From: a virus
UHGV virus genome: UHGV-0135394
Length of the DNA stretch: 25,890 nucleotides
Reading direction: 5' to 3' (one strand)
Within the stretch, counting starts at the first letter, position 1; every line of letters begins with the position of its first letter. The notes under the pieces were generated by a model. The model ran no database searches. It saw nothing but the letters and a program-made list of their open reading frames with translations, and was not told the origin of the DNA. Position numbers and translations under genes: made by a program. Below are positions 119 through 25,890 of the stretch, one piece after another.

Positions 119-346
119 GTGAAGCGATGGTTCCTCATAATTACTGTTTTCGCGATCATTTACGCTATTTTCCCTGCATTAAAAGCACCAATGCAAATAA
201 TTTCACTGGCAATAATTGCAATTGGTGCTTTCATTACAGTATCCGTACTTGTGTTTAAGGTTTTAAAGTTTTTAGTTTGGCTATCAAAAGATGATGGATG
301 CAAAGTTCATCAAGAAAAAGAAGGCAAAATAACCAAAGTTGACTAA
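119..346 (+). CDS. Small two-transmembrane-helix membrane protein (75 aa), moron-like, GTG start
   Basis: Strong SD AAGGAGG at 107..113, 5 nt before GTG 119; two hydrophobic segments (residues ~4-21 and ~27-49) with charged C-tail; AT-rich relative to flanks; stop overlaps stop of convergent gp16-like gene. Confidence 0.55.
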   Translation: MKRWFLIITVFAIIYAIFPALKAPMQIISLAIIAIGAFITVSVLVFKVLKFLVWLSKDDGCKVHQEKEGKITKVD

Positions 347-2466
347 CTGTCACTAGCGAGCCATGTAATAATCCCCGTGCGGGCAATGGTTTTTGCTTCA
401 TCTGTTGATAGGGTTTTCTCCCATCTCTTAAATGCCCCAGATTGCATCAGTTTCCTTTCTATTGCGCGTCTCACTTCTGCTCTGTCTACTGGTGCGTTTT
501 GCAGGCGAAATAGCATTGATTTAAACTCAGGAGAAGACAGTAGAGCATCAGCAGCCTTTATCCTGCTTGTTTTCCCTGACATCAATGCGGACGTTATCAC
601 CCCTGTTGCACCTACACCAGGAAGACCAGATAAGCTTGTAACACCTTCCGCCGCAGCAGCTTTTGAGGCTATTCCATAAATTTTTGCTAGACTACCCTTT
701 TCCTTCAGAAAGTTATTAACTTGCTGATCCACAAGGCTGCTAGCATACTGCTTACCAGTATTGAGTCTATTCATAGCCTTGGCAGCTTGATAAATCGTAT
801 CAAGGCGCTTTGATGCATCTGTGCCAATAGCATCACGGAGAGCCTTCATATTGGCCCCATTGCGTGACATTCCGTTATACCATTTTACAAATCCATCAAC
901 CCCTAATTGCTGACCTGGTGATTTAGCATAGCTGGTAAATGCTTTATTCATTGAGGTGAGCGCAACTTCCTGCCGCATATCCTTTGGAATTGACTTCATT
1001 AATTGCCTAAAGTCACCACCGTTTCCTTTTGCCATATTAACAACGGCACTTTCAACTTTTGGAATTGCTGATTGCTGAAGTTTTCTACCCAAAACGGTTA
1101 CGGCATCATCTTCCATGGATTTTCGTTTTTTTACCAACTCCTTACCAAGCGTCCATAACTCCCCTGCGCCATATTTTTCTGCGACAGCCTGTTGGTCATC
1201 TGTTATAGCTGCATATAACTTTTTAAGAACACCTGTTTCTTCATCCTTGAATGGGCCAGAGCCTTTGCCAATAGCTTGCCCAACCTGCTTTCTAGCGAGA
1301 TCTAAACGCCCATACGTTGGCAAGGTGTTTGGATCAAGTCGGTTCAATGTCCGCTTCATTATTGGAGATAATTCATCAATTCCACCTATGTCATCAGCAA
1401 AATCCTCTAAAAAATTCAATGTATTGGTTGCCTCAATACGGTCTCTTACTGGAACCTTTTCGGCAATTTTGTTGTAGATGTTATCTGACTGATTTTGTAA
1501 TGATGAAATGGTTTTATCAAAATTATCTGCAAGCCTGTCAGAAACCAGTTGCTTATCAAGGTTTCCCCCAAATGAAGTTATCATTTCATCAGCTTTTCTT
1601 CCTAATTCAGTAATAAAGCGCTTATGCGCCTCACTAATCTCTGTTCCAGGGAGACTTGCCACTGCATTATCAAGAGCCCTGACAGCAGGATTATTAGAGA
1701 TCATTCCTGGAGTGGCATAATTTTCCAGTTCTAGCTCACGGATGGCATTTATCGCGTTAAAATCAGGATTAACTTCATCGGCGAAACCTTGAATAGCTCG
1801 TTGCCCGCCAATAAATTTATTATCCATTGCGCCAGCAGCTTTCTTTAACGTTGCTTTAGATGATTTACTCCCCATCCCTACGGATGAGCGATAAATATCC
1901 CCGGCACTATTTTTAATTTTTCCTGCAATCTTCCCAAGCGCTGGACCAACAATCTCGGCTACAGGGCCAGCCACAGCGCCAATAGCAGCGCCGGAAGCAA
2001 CATCGCCATTTGTTCCATTGGCTACAATAGCCCCTTCTCCAGCACCAAGCCCTGCGGCGGCAGCCAGCCTTGCCGCCCCTTTCGGAACCTGAGAAATAAT
2101 CCCACCACCACTAACAAATGGCGCTGCTTGTCCAACAAACTCACCAACATCTTGTGCGGTTGATGGTTTTGCCGCTAACTTCTGCTGTAGAGACTGAATT
2201 GCGGCTTGCTCTTCTGGTGTCATATCCTGAAACAGGCCAACACCTTTACCAACATCCATCAATCCACTGAGAACGCCATACATAAAACGGTCGAAACCGT
2301 TAGCATTATTAACAACATTTTCCTGTCTGGAATTTTCCTCTGGTGAAACCAAAGGAGATTGCTGCTGTTCTGGTTGGGAATCAAGCACAAAGCCATCAGG
2401 AAGTTGTGAGTTATCAGGCTGTTCATCCAGAACAAACCCCTCTGGTAAACCTACATTGGTTGCCAT
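343..2466 (-). CDS. Ejection (E) protein, P22 gp16-like (707 aa)
   Basis: Last gene of the gp7/gp20/gp16 ejection-protein series by synteny; Ala/Gly-rich large protein; start overlaps upstream gene end. Confidence 0.75.
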
Positions 2467-19785: not shown

Positions 19786-20072
19786 GACTTAATCTTCCCC
19801 TCCTTCAGCAGTATCACCTGCGTCCTGATCACGCCTTCGAGGTGGTAAAGTCTGGCGTCTTTGTTGTCGATATTATGGGTGCGTCGGTCGATTTCATCGT
19901 GACACGCGCTACAAGCCCATGCGCCGATCAGGTCGTCAGGCTTCATTCCCGTTCCGCAAATTCCAGCCATCCGGTAATGTGCCAGAACTGTAGTTTCAGG
20001 GTTGCCATTGCATACGCCGTAAATACGTACCTGACATTCTCTGCCGCGCGCTTCTTTGCGTAGATTAGCCAT
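19782..20072 (-). CDS. ybcO: YbcO-like nin-region protein, putative Cys-rich nuclease (96 aa)
   Basis: MA.LRK.ARGRECQVRI.GVCNGNPET.VLAH...CSACHDEIDRRTH matches recalled DLP12 YbcO; GGGGAGG SD 9 nt upstream; ATGA overlap with rusA. Confidence 0.8.
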   Translation of the reverse strand: MANLRKEARGRECQVRIYGVCNGNPETTVLAHYRMAGICGTGMKPDDLIGAWACSACHDEIDRRTHNIDNKDARLYHLEGVIRTQVILLKEGKIKS

Positions 20073-20392
20073 TAAGCAGCCTCCCCGGTTACTTTCAGCA
20101 TTCCGTTATCGAGCAGCTTTCTGGTCAGCCACTGTTGACCACGCCCGGTGATTTTTGTGGTGAACGATATCTGTATTCCGTGATTTGTGTTGACCGCTGT
20201 TTCTTTCACGGTGAAATAGGCGCGATCACTTTCGTCTACTCCGTTACAAAGCGAGGCTGGGTATTTCCCGGCCTTCCTGTTATCCGAAATCCTCTGAAAG
20301 CACAGCGGCTGGCTGAGGAGATAAATAATAAACGAGGGGCTGTATGCACAAAGCATCTCCTGTTGAGTTAAGAACGAGCATTGAGATGGCAC
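20072..20392 (-). CDS. Hypothetical; probably only the 3' part is a real (possibly 5'-truncated) nin-region gene
   Basis: C-terminal ~60 codons look coding and the stop is coupled (TAATG) to the ybcO-like start; N-terminal ~45 codons are low-complexity and overlap the divergent plus-strand gene by 49 bp. Confidence 0.3.
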   Translation of the reverse strand: MPSQCSFLTQQEMLCAYSPSFIIYLLSQPLCFQRISDNRKAGKYPASLCNGVDESDRAYFTVKETAVNTNHGIQISFTTKITGRGQQWLTRKLLDNGMLKVTGEAA

Positions 20393-20535
20393 ATAGCCTT
20401 GCTCAAATTGGAGTCAAGTTTGTGCCAATACCAGTAGAAACAGACGAAGAATTTCATACGTTAGCCGCATCCCTTTCACAAAAGCTGGAAATGATGGTGG
20501 CGAAAGCAGAAGCAGATGAGAGAGACCAGGTATGA
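20344..20535 (+). CDS. Small early-operon protein (63 aa), acidic
   Basis: SD GAGGGG 5 nt upstream of ATG; first gene of a plus-strand operon pointing toward int; stop overlaps next start (ATGA). Confidence 0.55.
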   Translation: MHKASPVELRTSIEMAHSLAQIGVKFVPIPVETDEEFHTLAASLSQKLEMMVAKAEADERDQV

Positions 20536-20615
20536 CAACCACGGAATGCATTTTTCTGGCAGCGGGCTTCATATTTTGTGTGCTTATGCTTGCCGACATG
20601 GGACTTGTTCAATGA
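20532..20615 (+). CDS. Candidate 27-aa hydrophobic micro-protein (MTTTECIFLAAGFIFCVLMLADMGLVQ)
   Basis: Found by manual reading; ATGA overlaps at both ends couple it to the genes on either side; single predicted TM helix; below ORF-track cutoff. Confidence 0.35.
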   Translation: MTTTECIFLAAGFIFCVLMLADMGLVQ

Positions 20616-20827
20616 CACCTCAGCAAGAAAACGCCCTTCGCAGCATTGCCCGTCTGGCTAACTCTGAAATCAAAAAAGCCAGACAGCAGTTTCCGGATAA
20701 AAACGTCGATGACATTTGCCGTAGCGTACTGAAGAAGCACCGCGAAACGGTAACGCTGATGGGATTCACACCGACTCATTTAAGCCAGGCGATCGGCATG
20801 TTAAACGGCGTCTTTAAGGAGCGATGA
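20612..20827 (+). CDS. Small early-operon protein (71 aa); start at internal Met of the 103-aa ORF
   Basis: ATG at 20612 is translationally coupled to the preceding micro-ORF; the upstream part of the ORF-track frame overlaps two other genes. Confidence 0.55.
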   Translation: MTPQQENALRSIARLANSEIKKARQQFPDKNVDDICRSVLKKHRETVTLMGFTPTHLSQAIGMLNGVFKER

Positions 20828-20848
20828 ACATGAAGAGCAAAATCATCA

Positions 20849-20873
20849 GGGAGCTACAGGCTCCTTTTTTATT
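20849..20873 (+). terminator. Short GC hairpin plus U6 tract inside the early operon (attenuator or sRNA 3' end candidate)
   Basis: GGAGC-UACAG-GCUCC (20850..20864) followed by UUUUUUAUU (20865..20873). Confidence 0.4.
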
Positions 20874-20925
20874 GTTCGCATTCACCCTCAAGCGTATTAA
20901 CCAACAATTCAGGGATTAATGGAAG

Positions 20926-21147
20926 ATGGCAGACATCATTGATTCAGCATCAGAAATTGAAGAATTACAGCGCAACACAGCAATAAAAATGCGCCGCCTG
21001 AACCACCAGGCTATATCTGCCACTCATTGTTGTGAGTGTGGCGATCCCATAGATGAACGAAGACGCCTGGTCGTTCAGGGTTGTCGGACTTGTGCAAGTT
21101 GCCAGGAGGATCTGGAGCTTATCAGTAAACAGAGAGGTTCGAAGTGA
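20926..21147 (+). CDS. C4 zinc-finger protein, TraR/DksA-like (73 aa)
   Basis: CCECGDPI...(16 residues)...CRTCASC four-cysteine motif near C-terminus; SD-like GGAAG upstream. Confidence 0.6.
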   Translation: MADIIDSASEIEELQRNTAIKMRRLNHQAISATHCCECGDPIDERRRLVVQGCRTCASCQEDLELISKQRGSK

Positions 21148-21560
21148 GCGAAATTAACTCTCAGGCACTGCGTGAGGCGGCAGTAGCAATTGAAACAGTA
21201 GCAACGCCTCAAAAATTGCTGGCATTTCGTATGAAAGTCACACCTCAGGTTGTGCTGGCACTGCTGGATGAACGGGAAAGAAACCAGCAATACATCAAAC
21301 GCCGCGACCAAGAGAACGAGGATATTGCGTTAACGGTAGGGAAGTTGCGCGTTGAGCTTGAGGCAGAAAAACAGCGGGCAAAGGATCTGTTTATGGAAAA
21401 TGCTCGGCTTAAGTCAGGTATAGCCGGTCTGATACACCTCGGTATTCGATATGCAGATGTTGAGGTCATGAGAATTGCTGGAGATGCCCAGCTTTCTACC
21501 CCATGCACTGACAGCATCATAAACAGCATTGCAACAGGCATTCGCATCAAAGGAGAGTGA
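21144..21560 (+). CDS. Ea22-like early-region protein (138 aa), GTG start
   Basis: Motif LLDERERNQQYIKRRDQENEDIALTVGKLRVELE is characteristic of lambdoid Ea22-family proteins; SD AGAGAGG 6 nt upstream; start overlaps previous stop. Confidence 0.7.
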   Translation: MSEINSQALREAAVAIETVATPQKLLAFRMKVTPQVVLALLDERERNQQYIKRRDQENEDIALTVGKLRVELEAEKQRAKDLFMENARLKSGIAGLIHLGIRYADVEVMRIAGDAQLSTPCTDSIINSIATGIRIKGE

Positions 21561-21561
21561 T

Positions 21562-22230
21562 ATGAGCGCTATAACCAAAGAACGTATCAAATTATTCATT
21601 AAAAATCCGCTTGATAACGGACTTACTCGTGGCGAACAAATGGAACTGGCACGAATTGCACTGGCATCACTGGAACGCGAACAGATTCGCCACGAGCATG
21701 CCAAATGGTCTGACTCCACATTTGGCTGCGTTGGCCCCATTGGTCCGCTGAAACATCTCTCAAAAGAGGCACTGGAAGCCGCAGCCGAACCAGACGATCT
21801 TAGCGAGTGGGCTGATATGCAGTTTCTGTTGTGGGATGCACAGCGCCGTGCTGGCATCAGCGATGCTGAAATTACCGCTGCTATGGAAGATAAATTGAAG
21901 ATCAACATGGAGCGCCAGTGGCCTGAGCCAAAAGATGGTGAGCCTCGCTTGCACATTAAAGAACCCGGCAACTATCCGGTAACTCCGGATGGTTGGATAA
22001 GCTGTAGTGAGCGAATGCCAGAAATGGGAGAGCGACAATGCTATGTGTTAGCAGCTGACTTTAAAAACAACTACCCACCAAACATCCCCAACACTCAGGT
22101 CGGCGTATATGGCGACTGGTTTAATGATGGCAATCCAACTTGGGATGACGGTGATGGCGAAGACCTGTATCTCAAAGAGGTAACCCACTGGATGCCTCTA
22201 CCAGAACCGCCTCGATTAAAGGAGCTATAA
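21562..22230 (+). CDS. DUF551-type early-region protein (222 aa); start at internal ATG with SD
   Basis: C-terminal ...VTHWMPLPEPP signature of DUF551 domains common in lambdoid ea regions; SD AGGAGA at 21551..21556. Confidence 0.7.
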   Translation: MSAITKERIKLFIKNPLDNGLTRGEQMELARIALASLEREQIRHEHAKWSDSTFGCVGPIGPLKHLSKEALEAAAEPDDLSEWADMQFLLWDAQRRAGISDAEITAAMEDKLKINMERQWPEPKDGEPRLHIKEPGNYPVTPDGWISCSERMPEMGERQCYVLAADFKNNYPPNIPNTQVGVYGDWFNDGNPTWDDGDGEDLYLKEVTHWMPLPEPPRLKEL

Positions 22231-22344
22231 TAGTGAACTATTATATCTATTTGTATTAAAAGAGTTTTTATAAAATAAATCTTCCAAAGCATGTAAAAAC
22301 ACTGTTAATCTTAACGTGTGTGAAACGTGAAGAGAGGTGTTGAA

Positions 22345-22626
22345 ATGAGCATTCATGATTTGTGTGAAGATCAAGAGCAATGGGCTATGCAGACCCTTAT
22401 GGGATCAGGAGTTCTTGCAAGGTGCAGAATCCATAACGATGTAATTTTAGACAGCGGAAATGATGCTTCTTCTGCTTATAAATTAGGAACTTACCTATAT
22501 CAAAAAGATAATAGCTGCAACTTATTCAATACTCTTACTGAAGCCCGCGACGCAATAAAGGATGCATATGAATCGTATTGTGGGATTGATGATTGCCCAC
22601 AATGCTCAAAATACATTGACGATTAA
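22345..22626 (+). CDS. Hypothetical Cys-containing moron protein (93 aa) in AT-rich island
   Basis: SD AGAGAGG 7 nt upstream of ATG 22345; region 22230..22900 is visibly AT-rich relative to flanks; followed by hairpin terminator(s). Confidence 0.55.
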   Translation: MSIHDLCEDQEQWAMQTLMGSGVLARCRIHNDVILDSGNDASSAYKLGTYLYQKDNSCNLFNTLTEARDAIKDAYESYCGIDDCPQCSKYIDD

Positions 22627-22646
22627 TAATATGAACAAGTAACTAT

Positions 22647-22700
22647 CCTCGCACTCGCGGGGATTTCTTTTATCTGAACTCGCTACGGCGAGTTTTGTTT
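22647..22700 (+). terminator. Two tandem hairpins with U-tracts after the 93-aa moron gene
   Basis: CCUCGC-ACUC-GCGGGG + AUUUCUUUUAU (22647..22673) and GAACUCGC-UACG-GCGAGUUU + UGUUUUAU (22676..22702). Confidence 0.45.
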
Positions 22701-22714
22701 TATGGAGATGATAA

Positions 22715-22882
22715 ATGCACTTCCGAGTCACAGGTGAATGGAATGGAGAGCCATTCAACAGAGTTATCGAAGCAGAGAACATCAATGACTGCTATGACCA
22801 CTGGATGCTATGGGCGCAGATAGCACATGCAGACATAACCAATATTCGAATTGAAGAACTGAAAGAACACCAAGCCGCCTGA
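22715..22882 (+). CDS. Hypothetical small protein (55 aa)
   Basis: GGAG SD 7 nt upstream of ATG; stop lies inside a terminator hairpin; below ORF-track cutoff, found by manual reading. Confidence 0.45.
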   Translation: MHFRVTGEWNGEPFNRVIEAENINDCYDHWMLWAQIAHADITNIRIEELKEHQAA

Positions 22883-22897
22883 TGGCGGTTTATTTTT
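22874..22897 (+). terminator. Intrinsic terminator between moron cassette and alpA-like gene
   Basis: GCCGCC-UGAU-GGCGGU stem-loop followed by UUAUUUUU. Confidence 0.5.
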
Positions 22898-22912
22898 GCC
22901 TGGAGAATTAAG

Positions 22913-23104
22913 ATGACCGATACCAGCCTGATTCCTGAGAAAGAAGTGATGAACAAGCTCGGTGTTTCATCACGTCAGACAATCTGGAACTATACCAAAC
23001 GGCACGGATTTCCGAAGCCAGTCAGAACCCACCCCAAATCATACCTTCGTGAAGCTGTTGAAGGGTGGATTCTTAACGGTGGCGTTAATCAGAAATGCTC
23101 CTGA
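22913..23104 (+). CDS. AlpA/excisionase-family HTH protein (63 aa)
   Basis: Short HTH-like protein adjacent to a P4-type integrase; 3' end overlaps the integrase 3' end by 20 bp on the opposite strand. Confidence 0.7.
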   Translation: MTDTSLIPEKEVMNKLGVSSRQTIWNYTKRHGFPKPVRTHPKSYLREAVEGWILNGGVNQKCS

Positions 23105-24263
23105 TGTGCCAGAACAATTTATCAGCGTGAAGCTCATACGCTTTGCGCTGAGCCTCTATCCAGTCGTGTTTATTGTATACGGACATTATCCCGCCAAGTT
23201 CATGACCGAGCATTCGCTCAGTAACATGAGGCTCGACATTCATCTCGGACAGACGTGTAACAAGCGTTCTTCTGAAATCATGTGTTCGCCAGTAACCCAG
23301 ATCCATCCCTCCCCTTATTCGATTTACGAATCGGTTGGCTGCAGCGATGCTGATCGGTTTGTTTATGTCTTCTCCAGGGAAAAGAACATCATTGTACGTT
23401 GTCATGGCCTTTTCGAGGAAAGGCTTAATTTGTTCGAAGATTGGACGGCGGATAACATTACCCATCTTGCTATGCTCTTTCGGTACGGTCCATACGTTGT
23501 CCAGCAGGTCAAACTCTGTCTTTGTTGCCAGCCTAAGCTCTGAGAGCCTCGCCCCCCACAGCATAAGCATCTGATGAAGGAGCTTATTTGACGTAGACGC
23601 ACGGCTTCTTTCAATAGCAAGCCAAATCTTAGCCAGTTCGTGATACGACAGTACCCGATCCCCTACCTCAGCGCGGGAGCCGAAGTCCCTTGGTTGGATG
23701 CTCATAATTGCGCAACTATCTATCAACTGACGCCGCATGCACCAACTTATTGCTGATCTTAGTTGACTTAGCACCTGCCTTGCTCGGCGTGGATTATCTC
23801 TTTCTTCTTCGGTAAGCAGGTCAACCCATTGCTTAACCGTGATAGAAGATGCCGGACGATTAGGAAAGGCGTCATGCATGCGCTTCATAACCGTTGATCG
23901 GTAAAGTGCCTGGGTCTTTTCTCTGAGAGTTGTAGAGACGTAGTTGTCGAACCAGTAGTCGAGACACTGGGCGACCGTCATGGAGTTCTCCACCTTCTCT
24001 TCAAAATAAGTGCGTGGATCCGTTCCTGAGAAATAGAGCTTTCGCAAGTCAGCAGTGATCTGTCTGGCATCCTTCAAAGACAGGGATGGGTATCGACCAA
24101 GCCCAAGTCGATTAGGCTTGCCATGCCAGCGATAGCGGTACTGGAACTGGATGACCCCCTTCGGTGAAATTCGTACGCTGAGGCCATCGGCATCAGCCAC
24201 TTCTTGTGGGCCAGAATATGGTTTACCATAAATAGTACGCAGTTTTGTGTCGCTTATAGCCAT
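23085..24263 (-). CDS. int: Tyrosine site-specific integrase, P4-type with N-terminal arm-binding domain (392 aa)
   Basis: N-terminal DUF4102-like domain (...GLSVRISPKGVIQFQYRYRWHGKPNRLGLGRYPSLSLKDAR); catalytic signature HDFRRT ... LGHELGG ... SVY near C-terminus; located at the prophage-host junction. Confidence 0.92.
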   Translation of the reverse strand: MAISDTKLRTIYGKPYSGPQEVADADGLSVRISPKGVIQFQYRYRWHGKPNRLGLGRYPSLSLKDARQITADLRKLYFSGTDPRTYFEEKVENSMTVAQCLDYWFDNYVSTTLREKTQALYRSTVMKRMHDAFPNRPASSITVKQWVDLLTEEERDNPRRARQVLSQLRSAISWCMRRQLIDSCAIMSIQPRDFGSRAEVGDRVLSYHELAKIWLAIERSRASTSNKLLHQMLMLWGARLSELRLATKTEFDLLDNVWTVPKEHSKMGNVIRRPIFEQIKPFLEKAMTTYNDVLFPGEDINKPISIAAANRFVNRIRGGMDLGYWRTHDFRRTLVTRLSEMNVEPHVTERMLGHELGGIMSVYNKHDWIEAQRKAYELHADKLFWHIRSISD

Positions 24264-24273
24264 AAATAATATT

Positions 24274-24315
24274 TGGTACGCTCAGAAATAATGGTTTGGT
24301 ACACATCTGGTACAC
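24274..24315. repeat. Three direct copies of TGGTAC(G/A)C in the int-sbcB intergenic region
   Basis: Copies at 24274..24281, 24297..24304 and 24308..24315 (spacing 23 and 11 bp), immediately upstream of the int start; candidate arm-type or regulatory binding sites. Confidence 0.45.
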
Positions 24316-24444
24316 AATATCACATGGACAACAGCGCACAGTAAACAACTATATTTGACGTTCGTAGACATACTCAGGTGAAAAAATGGTTGTTTTTCGA
24401 GTCATAACAGACAGTTAATTAACTACAGTGGACAATGCTAGACA

Positions 24445-25890
24445 ATGACAGGCACAGATAAACAACCTACCTTCCTCTTTCACGATTACGAAACCTTTGG
24501 CACGCACCCCGCGTTAGATCGCCCTGCACAGTTCGCAGCCATTCGCACCGATGACGAATTCAATGTCATCGGCGAACCCGAAGTCTTTTACTGCAAGCCC
24601 GCGGATGACTATTTACCCCAGCCTGGAGCAGTATTAATTACCGGTATTACCCCGCAGGAGGCACGAGCGAAAGGAGAAAACGAAGCCGCGTTTGCCGCCC
24701 GTATTCACTCGCTTTTTACCGTACCGAAGACCTGTATTCTGGGCTACAACAATGTGCGTTTCGACGACGAAGTCACACGCAACGTTTTTTATCGTAATTT
24801 CTACGATCCTTACGCCTGGAGCTGGCAGCATGATAACTCGCGCTGGGATTTACTGGATGTTATGCGTGCCTGTTATGCCCTGCGCCCGGAAGGAATAAAT
24901 TGGCCTGAAAATGATGACGGTCTACCGAGCTTTCGCCTTGAGCATTTAACCAAAGCGAATGGTATTGAACATAGCAACGCCCACGATGCGATGGCTGATG
25001 TGTACGCCACTATTGCGATGGCAAAACTGGTAAAAACGCGTCAGCCACGCCTGTTTGATTATCTCTTTACCCATCGTAATAAACACAAACTAATGGCGTT
25101 GATTGATGTTCCTCAGATGAAACCCCTGGTTCACGTTTCCGGAATGTTTGGGGCATGGCGCGGCAATACAAGCTGGGTGGCACCGCTGGCGTGGCATCCT
25201 GAAAATCGCAATGCCGTAATTATGGTGGATTTGGCAGGAGACATTTCGCCATTACTGGAGCTGGATAGCGACACATTGCGCGAGCGTTTATATACCGCAA
25301 AAGCCGATCTTGGCGATAACGCCGCCGTTCCGGTTAAGCTGGTACATATCAATAAATGTCCGGTACTGGCCCAGGCGAATACGCTACGCCCGGAAGATGC
25401 CGACCGACTGGGAATTAATCGTCAGCATTGCCTCGATAACCTAAAAATTCTGCGTGAAAATCCGCAAGTGCGTGAAAAAGTGGTAGCGATATTCGTGGAA
25501 GCCGAACCGTTTACACCTTCAGATAATGTGGATGCACAGCTTTATAACGGCTTTTTCAGTGACGCCGATCGTGCAGCAATGAAAATTGTGCTGGAAACCG
25601 AGCCGCGTAATTTACCGGCACTGGATATCACTTTTGTTGATAAACGAATTGAAAAGCTGTTGTTCAATTATCGGGCGCGCAACTTCCCGGGGACGCTGGA
25701 TTATGCCGAGCAGCAACGCTGGCTGGAGCACCGCCGCCAGGTCTTCACGCCAGAGTTTTTACAAGGCTATGCAGAAGAGATTCAGATGCTGGCGCAGCAG
25801 TATGCCGACGATAAAGAAAAAGTGGCGCTGTTAAAAGCGCTTTGGCAGTACGCGGACAAAAGCAGCACTGGCAGAAATGGCCAGCGGCGA
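24445..25890 (+). CDS. sbcB: Exodeoxyribonuclease I (3'-to-5' ssDNA exonuclease), 3'-partial at window end
   Basis: Translation from ATG 24445 (MTGTDKQPTFLFHDYETFGTHPALDRPAQFAAIRTD...) is near-identical to enterobacterial ExoI over about 470 residues; ORF runs to the window end without a stop. Confidence 0.93.
   Translation, partial: MTGTDKQPTFLFHDYETFGTHPALDRPAQFAAIRTDDEFNVIGEPEVFYCKPADDYLPQPGAVLITGITPQEARAKGENEAAFAARIHSLFTVPKTCILGYNNVRFDDEVTRNVFYRNFYDPYAWSWQHDNSRWDLLDVMRACYALRPEGINWPENDDGLPSFRLEHLTKANGIEHSNAHDAMADVYATIAMAKLVKTRQPRLFDYLFTHRNKHKLMALIDVPQMKPLVHVSGMFGAWRGNTSWVAPLAWHPENRNAVIMVDLAGDISPLLELDSDTLRERLYTAKADLGDNAAVPVKLVHINKCPVLAQANTLRPEDADRLGINRQHCLDNLKILRENPQVREKVVAIFVEAEPFTPSDNVDAQLYNGFFSDADRAAMKIVLETEPRNLPALDITFVDKRIEKLLFNYRARNFPGTLDYAEQQRWLEHRRQVFTPEFLQGYAEEIQMLAQQYADDKEKVALLKALWQYADKSSTGRNGQRR

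Follow-up and report, generated by a model that had tools for sequence, protein, structure and literature searches.

The 25,890-nucleotide stretch of viral DNA analyzed here (UHGV virus genome UHGV-0135394; hereafter the window) probably contains the int-side junction at which a P22-like prophage has entered the 5' end of sbcB, together with a complete site-specific recombination cassette of the Phi24B/P4 type. In this joint reading, which we hold with good confidence, the integrase would bind repeated arm-type sites beside its own gene and repress its own promoter, and a small convergent gene would supply the excisionase. The cassette, its sbcB target and core, the inverted integrase and the inducible-excisionase logic have already been published; the new practical detail is a map of five predicted arm-type sites, of candidate arrays for Xis binding or DNA bending, and of the crossover core.

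The whole cassette region (1.75 kb) shares 98–99% nucleotide identity with phages HK140, mEp234, HK544, Sf101, 2851 (Stx2c) and 1717 (Stx2), and with many Stx1a, Stx2a and Stx2c phages. Across xis, int and the P arm, and in the core and the sbcB target, we find no material difference from the six named phages; a putative attP is annotated in HK140. Portal, gp10 and ejection-protein genes mark the surrounding prophage as P22-like, and its late, lysis, Q and nin genes lie on the minus strand, the strand of int. The int gene is the final phage gene ahead of the att core (24478–24490) and is transcribed inward, into the prophage. A preliminary description of this DNA had proposed an integration module at this position, with int reading inward on the late-gene strand, opposite to the lambda arrangement; the orientation is correct and had been published for Phi24B (PMC3064807), and the module is borne out by its protein domains, catalytic residues, core and junctions, and by the near-identical phages. 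A lambda-type int-xis arrangement is ruled out, since int lies on the strand opposite xis and the early-left genes and is not co-directional with them.

The integrase gene (23085–24263, minus strand) encodes an sbcB-targeting protein of 392 residues beginning MAISDTKLRT. Pfam searches place an Arm-DNA-bind_3 domain (PF13356/DUF4102) at residues 4–85 of Int (8.2e-18; 64.8 bits against a cut-off of 27) and a Phage_integrase domain (PF00589, 1.1e-16) toward its C-terminus. The catalytic set R239, K266, H328, R331, H354 and Y363 is invariant among 15 homologues that are 59–86% identical. Int is 99–100% identical to the integrases of 2851, Sf101, HK140 and mEp234, 57% identical to that of Phi24B (E = 8e-172), and 25% identical over 330 residues to that of P4 (E = 5e-13), with 22% identity to IntS of KplE1. 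Taken together, domain content and homology show Int to be a P4-type tyrosine recombinase, and the earlier assignment to the P4 rather than the lambda type is upheld by the two Pfam domains and the resemblance to P4 Int.

The insertion point can be read by aligning the window with a free phage and with an unoccupied host gene. Homology to HK140, a free phage with a contiguous attP, extends up to 24490, and homology to K-12 begins at 24461. In this comparison the attP/attB identity segment is shown to be the 13-bp core TTTCACGATTACG (24478–24490, plus strand), which occupies sbcB codons 12–16 (F-H-D-Y). The three-way alignment of window, K-12 and HK140 likewise shows that in sbcB the start codon and first 11 codons (24445–24477, plus strand) have been replaced by phage-supplied sequence, such that exonuclease I (ExoI), the sbcB product, starts MTGTDKQPTFL here where the K-12 enzyme starts MMNDGKQQSTFL. 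The rest of the gene (24491–25856, plus strand) is host-derived and 96.6% identical to K-12 sbcB. The core sits on the FHDYET motif, which holds the ExoI catalytic residues D15 and E17. The same 13-bp core has been published for phages 2851 and Sf101 (PMC4159516).

Converging on int is a 63-residue gene (22913–23104, plus strand), predicted to encode a recombination directionality factor (RDF) with a MerR-type winged-helix fold. The strongest evidence for its function is homology to the experimentally tested Phi24B Xis (47% identity, E = 4e-19), and the protein also matches PHROG 66, "excisionase and transcriptional regulator" (1.9e-8). Its resemblance to P4 Vis is weak (33% over 45 residues), and similarity to TorI was not significant in a direct comparison. 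An AF2 model with a pLDDT of 83 has winged-helix-turn-helix topology, and the top Foldseek matches in the PDB are RacA, CarH, BldC, other MerR-family proteins and a phage Xis; all have E > 1e-3, so that the MerR-type assignment of the fold is suggestive. As part of the joint reading, the gene is thus likely to be the excisionase. The preliminary description had called the product AlpA- or excisionase-like, and the two halves of that label fared differently: an excisionase-type partner agrees with the Phi24B homology, whereas the AlpA name is a loose one, since the Pfam AlpA match (PF05930) reaches 17.8 bits against a gathering cut-off of 21, HTH_17 is also below threshold, similarity to K-12 AlpA was not significant in a single pairwise BLASTP comparison (E = 0.028), and the gene order of CP4-57, the element that carries AlpA, is different.

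The setting of this gene is also informative. An intrinsic terminator lies just 5' of it (22872–22891, plus strand) and is annotated in HK140 as well; it is the last in a row of three on the plus strand (22645, 22676 and 22872), and a scan reaching back to 20000 counts four plus-strand terminators ahead of xis. Terminators in this position fit expression from antiterminated pL transcripts. The excisionase gene would then close the early-left operon transcribed from pL, with terminators ahead of it, and its product would be made only after induction and antitermination, with the supply of Xis acting as the excision switch. This scheme has a precedent in Phi24B, where int has its own promoter that is not repressed by CI and the small ORF at the int 3' end is a functional excisionase under pL, on which excision depends (PMC3064807).

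Three copies of the octamer TGGTACRC, all on the plus strand, lie 11–52 nt upstream of the int ATG, at 24274, 24297 and 24308, in agreement with the preliminary description, which had noted three TGGTAC(G/A)C direct repeats there. The first, P1 (TTTGGTACGCT, 24274–24281), is 11 nt from the ATG and falls in the int 5' untranslated region predicted by homology to Phi24B; the second, P2 (TTTGGTACACA, 24297–24304), overlaps the −10 region of the int promoter predicted by the same homology; and the third, P3 (TCTGGTACACA, 24308–24315), is 11 bp from P2. The window contains four matches to TGGTACRC against 0.84 expected, the fourth being an isolated copy inside a coding gene (2844, minus strand), and the clustering of three within 42 bp is far beyond chance. 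Independent repeat finding recovered the same three sites and extended the consensus to (T)TTGGTACRCA.

To follow these repeats to the other side of the core, we read the far att arm from the HK140 attP and from lysogen Z30, as the window holds the int-proximal junction only. The HK140 attP carries a distal pair, TTTGGTACGCAATTTGGTACACA, 56–78 bp past the core. At the far junction of Z30 the order is dacD, a K-12-type sbcB 5' end, the core and then the P' arm, in which the same pair is present. Window and HK140 together thus place three TTTGGTACRCA sites on the int side of the core and two on the other. The repeats had been offered earlier with the proviso that their absence from the other att arm would tell against them; with copies on both arms, that objection fails. 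A similar layout is seen in Hafnia phage yong2, phage phi346 and Klebsiella phage P12620-1, whose integrases are 54–61% identical to Int and whose attP sites are contiguous: each has three int-side sites and two tandem sites ~285–297 nt away, and in each the sites of both arms are variants of one GTAC-centred motif in the same geometry.

The triplet is conserved well beyond these close relatives. Among 80 homologous loci with integrases 41–99% identical to Int, 60 carry a triple of G(T/G)AC motifs with spacings of 21–25 and 11–12 bp at most 90 nt from the int start, compared with 2 of 3736 control windows. The arm motif consensus over these loci is (T/A)TNTGTACNCA, of which TGGTAC is a minority variant, and Photobacterium has GGACRCA. 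When the first 100 positions of Int, where the arm-binding domain is found, were compared between loci with TGGTAC and loci with TGTAC, no individual residue separated the two variants. The published studies of Sf101 (PMC4159516) and Phi24B (PMC3064807 and PMC7581858) make no mention of arm repeats. P4 offers an annotated counterpart: it shares the N-terminal arm-binding domain family, and its record lists "attP arm sequence repeats" in a 3+2 arrangement, with three repeats by the int start and two in tandem at 12-bp spacing ~54 bp past the core. P4 differs from the window in its arm motif, GGGGGCAT, in the location of vis, which is not adjacent to int, and in its integration target, a tRNA-Leu gene. 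Based on number, placement and conservation, the repeats are very probably Int arm-type sites. The N-terminal arm-binding domain of Int would bind five (T)TTGGTACRCA sites, three by the int start and two in tandem past the core, and Int would connect these arms with the core in the manner of the P4 and lambda integrases.

The position of the three int-side repeats on the int promoter region could also be accommodated if the 63-residue protein acted as does AlpA of CP4-57, as an activator or antiterminator of int, and if TGGTACRC were its operator rather than an arm site. The weak AlpA and HTH_17 matches and the RefSeq label "AlpA family regulatory protein" given to the homologues in HK140 and Stx phages lend this some color, and CP4-57 does resemble the window in pairing a small helix-turn-helix protein with a P4-type integrase beside the target gene. 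We nonetheless consider it highly improbable. The AlpA match falls short of the Pfam gathering cut-off, and no significant similarity links the protein to K-12 AlpA; in CP4-57, whose AlpA activates transcription, intA is followed on its own strand first by another gene and then by alpA; and the closest characterized relative of the 63-residue protein is an excisionase, which worked with int expressed from a plasmid promoter. Furthermore, the far-arm copies lie ~280 bp away, past the core and in the geometry of P4 Int arm sites, a location that makes no sense for promoter operators. We therefore continue to treat the repeats as predicted arm-type sites for Int.

As arm-type sites, the repeats bear on how int itself is expressed. 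In Phi24B, 5'-RACE placed the int transcription start 46 bp past the formerly predicted start codon (PMC3064807); that former start is the GTG at 161, which puts the transcription start at ~207, between repeat 2 and repeat 1. A sigma-70 consensus scan of both strands over 22600–24520 and 20000–22950 found no promoter, and −10/−35 candidates in the int-sbcB spacer (24264–24445) are weak, such that the int promoter of the window is placed by homology to Phi24B alone. With this placement, P3 and P2 would occupy the promoter spacer and −10 region and P1 the 5' untranslated region. Because the sites overlap the promoter, Int is predicted to repress its own, otherwise constitutive and CI-independent, promoter; we infer this autorepression by analogy with related elements. 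In P4, both Int and Vis exert negative control over int (cited in PMC2951348). In KplE1 (CPS-53), as in the window, the integrase is transcribed inward from a promoter that overlaps an att arm, and it is repressed by Int and the RDF, a scheme set out as a KplE1/P4 model, with the RDF gene transcriptionally uncoupled from int and the RDF sites arranged in two blocks (PMC2951348). In other respects the IntS-TorI systems of KplE1, Sf6 and HK620 are unlike the window: in KplE1 and Sf6 the order is torI-attP-intS on one strand, and the RDF gene comes to lie at the opposite end of the prophage from intS (K-12). Membership in that group is ruled out for the window cassette, in which xis is adjacent to int and convergent with it.

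The two convergent genes meet tail to tail in a 20-bp overlap (23085–23104, from the ORFs), at the place and with the length that the preliminary description gave. In ~43 of the 80 loci, down to an Int identity of 49%, a xis homologue converges on int and shares 14, 17, 20 or 23 bp with it, and among the overlapping loci the relative frame of the two genes is always identical. Phi24B is another instance, with int at 236–1405 (plus strand), xis at 1389–1571 (minus strand) and a convergent overlap of 17 bp. A search of the literature for int/xis pairs that converge or overlap, in combination with AlpA, found nothing.

It has been suggested for the window that such an overlap might couple the two genes: antiterminated pL/xis transcripts running antisense through int would lower int expression, either through colliding polymerases or through antisense RNA, and int transcription would in turn lower xis. 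The retention of a 14–23 bp overlap in the same relative frame in more than half of the loci and in Phi24B speaks for this coupling. No conserved intrinsic terminator on the xis strand, nor any other conserved signal, was found inside int among the loci with an overlapping xis, and read-through into int is thus possible; a hairpin at 23406–23425 inside int is shared only with a 99% relative. On the minus strand, the hairpin 3' of int has a poor T tail. On the other hand, common descent with whole-codon insertions and deletions, coupled with the compact coding of phages, accounts for conservation of the overlap equally well; the published models for Phi24B and KplE1 explain int/xis control without it; and members of the clade in Vibrionaceae lack an adjacent convergent xis. 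Weighing these points, we regard a coupling role for the overlap as unlikely.

Between P3 and the core, the P arm contains two phased arrays. Block I (24326–24369, plus strand) consists of five NNAC units at 24329, 24339, 24349, 24359 and 24369 (GGAC, GCAC, CAAC, TGAC and AGAC), and block II (24430–24463, plus strand) of four at 24433, 24443, 24453 and 24463 (GGAC, AGAC, GCAC and AAAC). In both blocks the units are spaced exactly 10 bp apart, and block II spans the sbcB start codon. Across 54 non-identical loci, RRAC motifs recur at 10, 20 and 30 bp with z = 47, 32 and 20, values that in part reflect shared ancestry, as the loci are related. They recall the TorI sites of the KplE1 attL, which also form two blocks (PMC2951348), and the arrays are the best candidates for sites of Xis binding or of intrinsic bending. 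For Phi24B Int, IHF is not needed and an attP of 350–427 bp is (PMC7581858), a length that would fit a need for the int-proximal repeat.

These observations raise the question of whether the P arm is more than a recombination scaffold. In every lysogen, phage DNA makes up the whole sbcB promoter together with the start codon and the 11 codons that open the gene, in hosts from Enterobacterales to Vibrionaceae and Shewanella. The arrays, which are conserved across this integrase clade, could support an Xis filament or a bend that replaces IHF, and could also link host ExoI expression to the Int/Xis state. We offer this extension as a long shot.

Whether the cassette still operates in this particular prophage is a separate matter. 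The segment between the nin and early-left genes, which normally holds exo or erf, kil, N, cI, cro and O-/P-type replication genes, is absent; at ~20217 the two sides are joined through a chimeric ORF in which an Ant-like protein is reduced to its C-terminus. The window differs in this from the HK140-type phages, its cassette being joined to a P22-like prophage that lacks the immunity/replication region. We found the two sides of the ~20217 junction contiguous in none of 5426 complete E. coli genomes, and no complete E. coli genome spanning at least 80% of the window. Since pL and N are missing, no promoter-like site lies upstream and four plus-strand terminators intervene, Xis is unlikely to be produced, and excision is probably disabled, leaving the prophage locked in.

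This leads to the possibility that the cassette is here an inert relic of a defective prophage, without regulated function. The loss of repressor, N, pL and replication genes, a junction that recurs in none of the E. coli genomes, and four plus-strand terminators with no promoter-like site ahead of xis are all in keeping with such a state. At the same time, both ORFs, int and xis, remain intact, as does the near att junction, with 99–100% identity to the counterparts in active phages; int by analogy has a promoter of its own, and a second prophage providing Xis could still bring about excision. We judge the chances that the cassette is inert here to be evenly balanced; the issue concerns activity in this prophage rather than the identity of the cassette, which on our preferred reading is that of a Phi24B/P4-type recombination module at sbcB.

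The module adjoins sbcB in ~527 of the 5426 complete E. coli genomes, and its carriers include Stx1, Stx2a and Stx2c phages and serotype-converting Shigella phages. The site map could therefore guide studies of excision and stability of Stx prophages at sbcB. Beyond E. coli, sbcB lies upstream of int and divergent from it in ~56 of the 80 homologous loci, those of Vibrionaceae, Shewanella, Endozoicomonas and Orbaceae included. This distribution is evidence that one integrase clade targets the ExoI FHDYET codons across many Gammaproteobacteria, rebuilding the 5' end of the gene as it does so.

Phi24B, a functionally characterized relative, is like the window in its int, inverted with respect to lambda, in its xis, convergent at the int 3' end, and in its three GTAC-type repeats, which lie at the same offsets from int. 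It differs in having TGTAC rather than TGGTAC as its arm motif, and in that Int and Xis function has been tested there, whereas the window cassette is known from sequence. The targets differ too. In a sub-clade of integrases ~51–56% identical to Int, the loci we inspected carry, at the corresponding position, a tRNA that begins like E. coli argW, and the Phi24B record opens with sequence matching the tRNA start at these argW-like junctions, whereas the cassette of the window targets sbcB.

The 80 compared loci (L007-L086) hold a single integrase clade at 41-99% identity, and members of it adjoin sbcB, in divergent orientation, in Enterobacterales, Orbaceae, Vibrionaceae, Shewanella, Catenovulum and Endozoicomonas. 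At the loci inspected from a sub-clade at ~51-56% identity, the same architecture abuts the 5' end of a different target, a tRNA that starts like E. coli argW.

Between the three TGGTACRC arm-type sites and the att core, the P arm (the int side) carries arrays of NNAC/RRAC elements in strict 10-bp phasing, at 24326-24369 and 24430-24463. Their conservation extends across the clade (loci L007-L062), with z = 47 for the 10-bp spacing, and they may serve as binding sites for Xis or as intrinsic bends.

In lysogens, phage DNA supplies the sbcB start codon and first 11 codons (24445-24477), together with every signal upstream of them, giving a phage-encoded SbcB N-terminus of MTGTDKQPTFL, as against MMNDGKQQSTFL in K-12. 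The far junction keeps the native sbcB promoter and first 16 codons, and the native reading frame there continues into the P' arm. At the other end of the gene, the K-12 match of the window sbcB stops 13 bp short of the stop codon (25856/25857), and the 34 bp that follow, the last of the window (to 25890), are an inverted match to the interior of tsuB (yeeD). None of the 5418 E. coli genomes matching the sbcB part has this sbcB/tsuB junction, which would change the C-terminus of SbcB and could have arisen by a small inversion, by some other rearrangement or as an artefact of assembly.

Just upstream of xis, the predicted excisionase gene, a 55-aa lambdap35-like ORF is bracketed by three + strand intrinsic terminators, at 22645, 22676 and 22872 (within 22645-22891). 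A further terminator-like hairpin on the xis strand falls inside the int coding region (23406-23425); the 99%-identical relative alone shares it, and more distant homologues do not conserve it.

The immunity, recombination and replication region is entirely missing from the prophage, and the nin region is joined directly to early-left genes of the DUF1317 and DUF1382 type at a junction near 20217 (within 20072-20520). A chimeric 106-aa ORF results, to which an Ant/KilAC protein contributes only its C-terminal 50 aa. The left and right flanks are each common in E. coli; as a contiguous pair, they were found in 0 of 5426 complete E. coli genomes. Among the early-left accessory genes (21529-22230 and 22327-22626) are a homologue of lambda Ea8.5 and an ORF of 233 aa in which DUF551 occurs together with a dATP/dGTP pyrophosphohydrolase domain.
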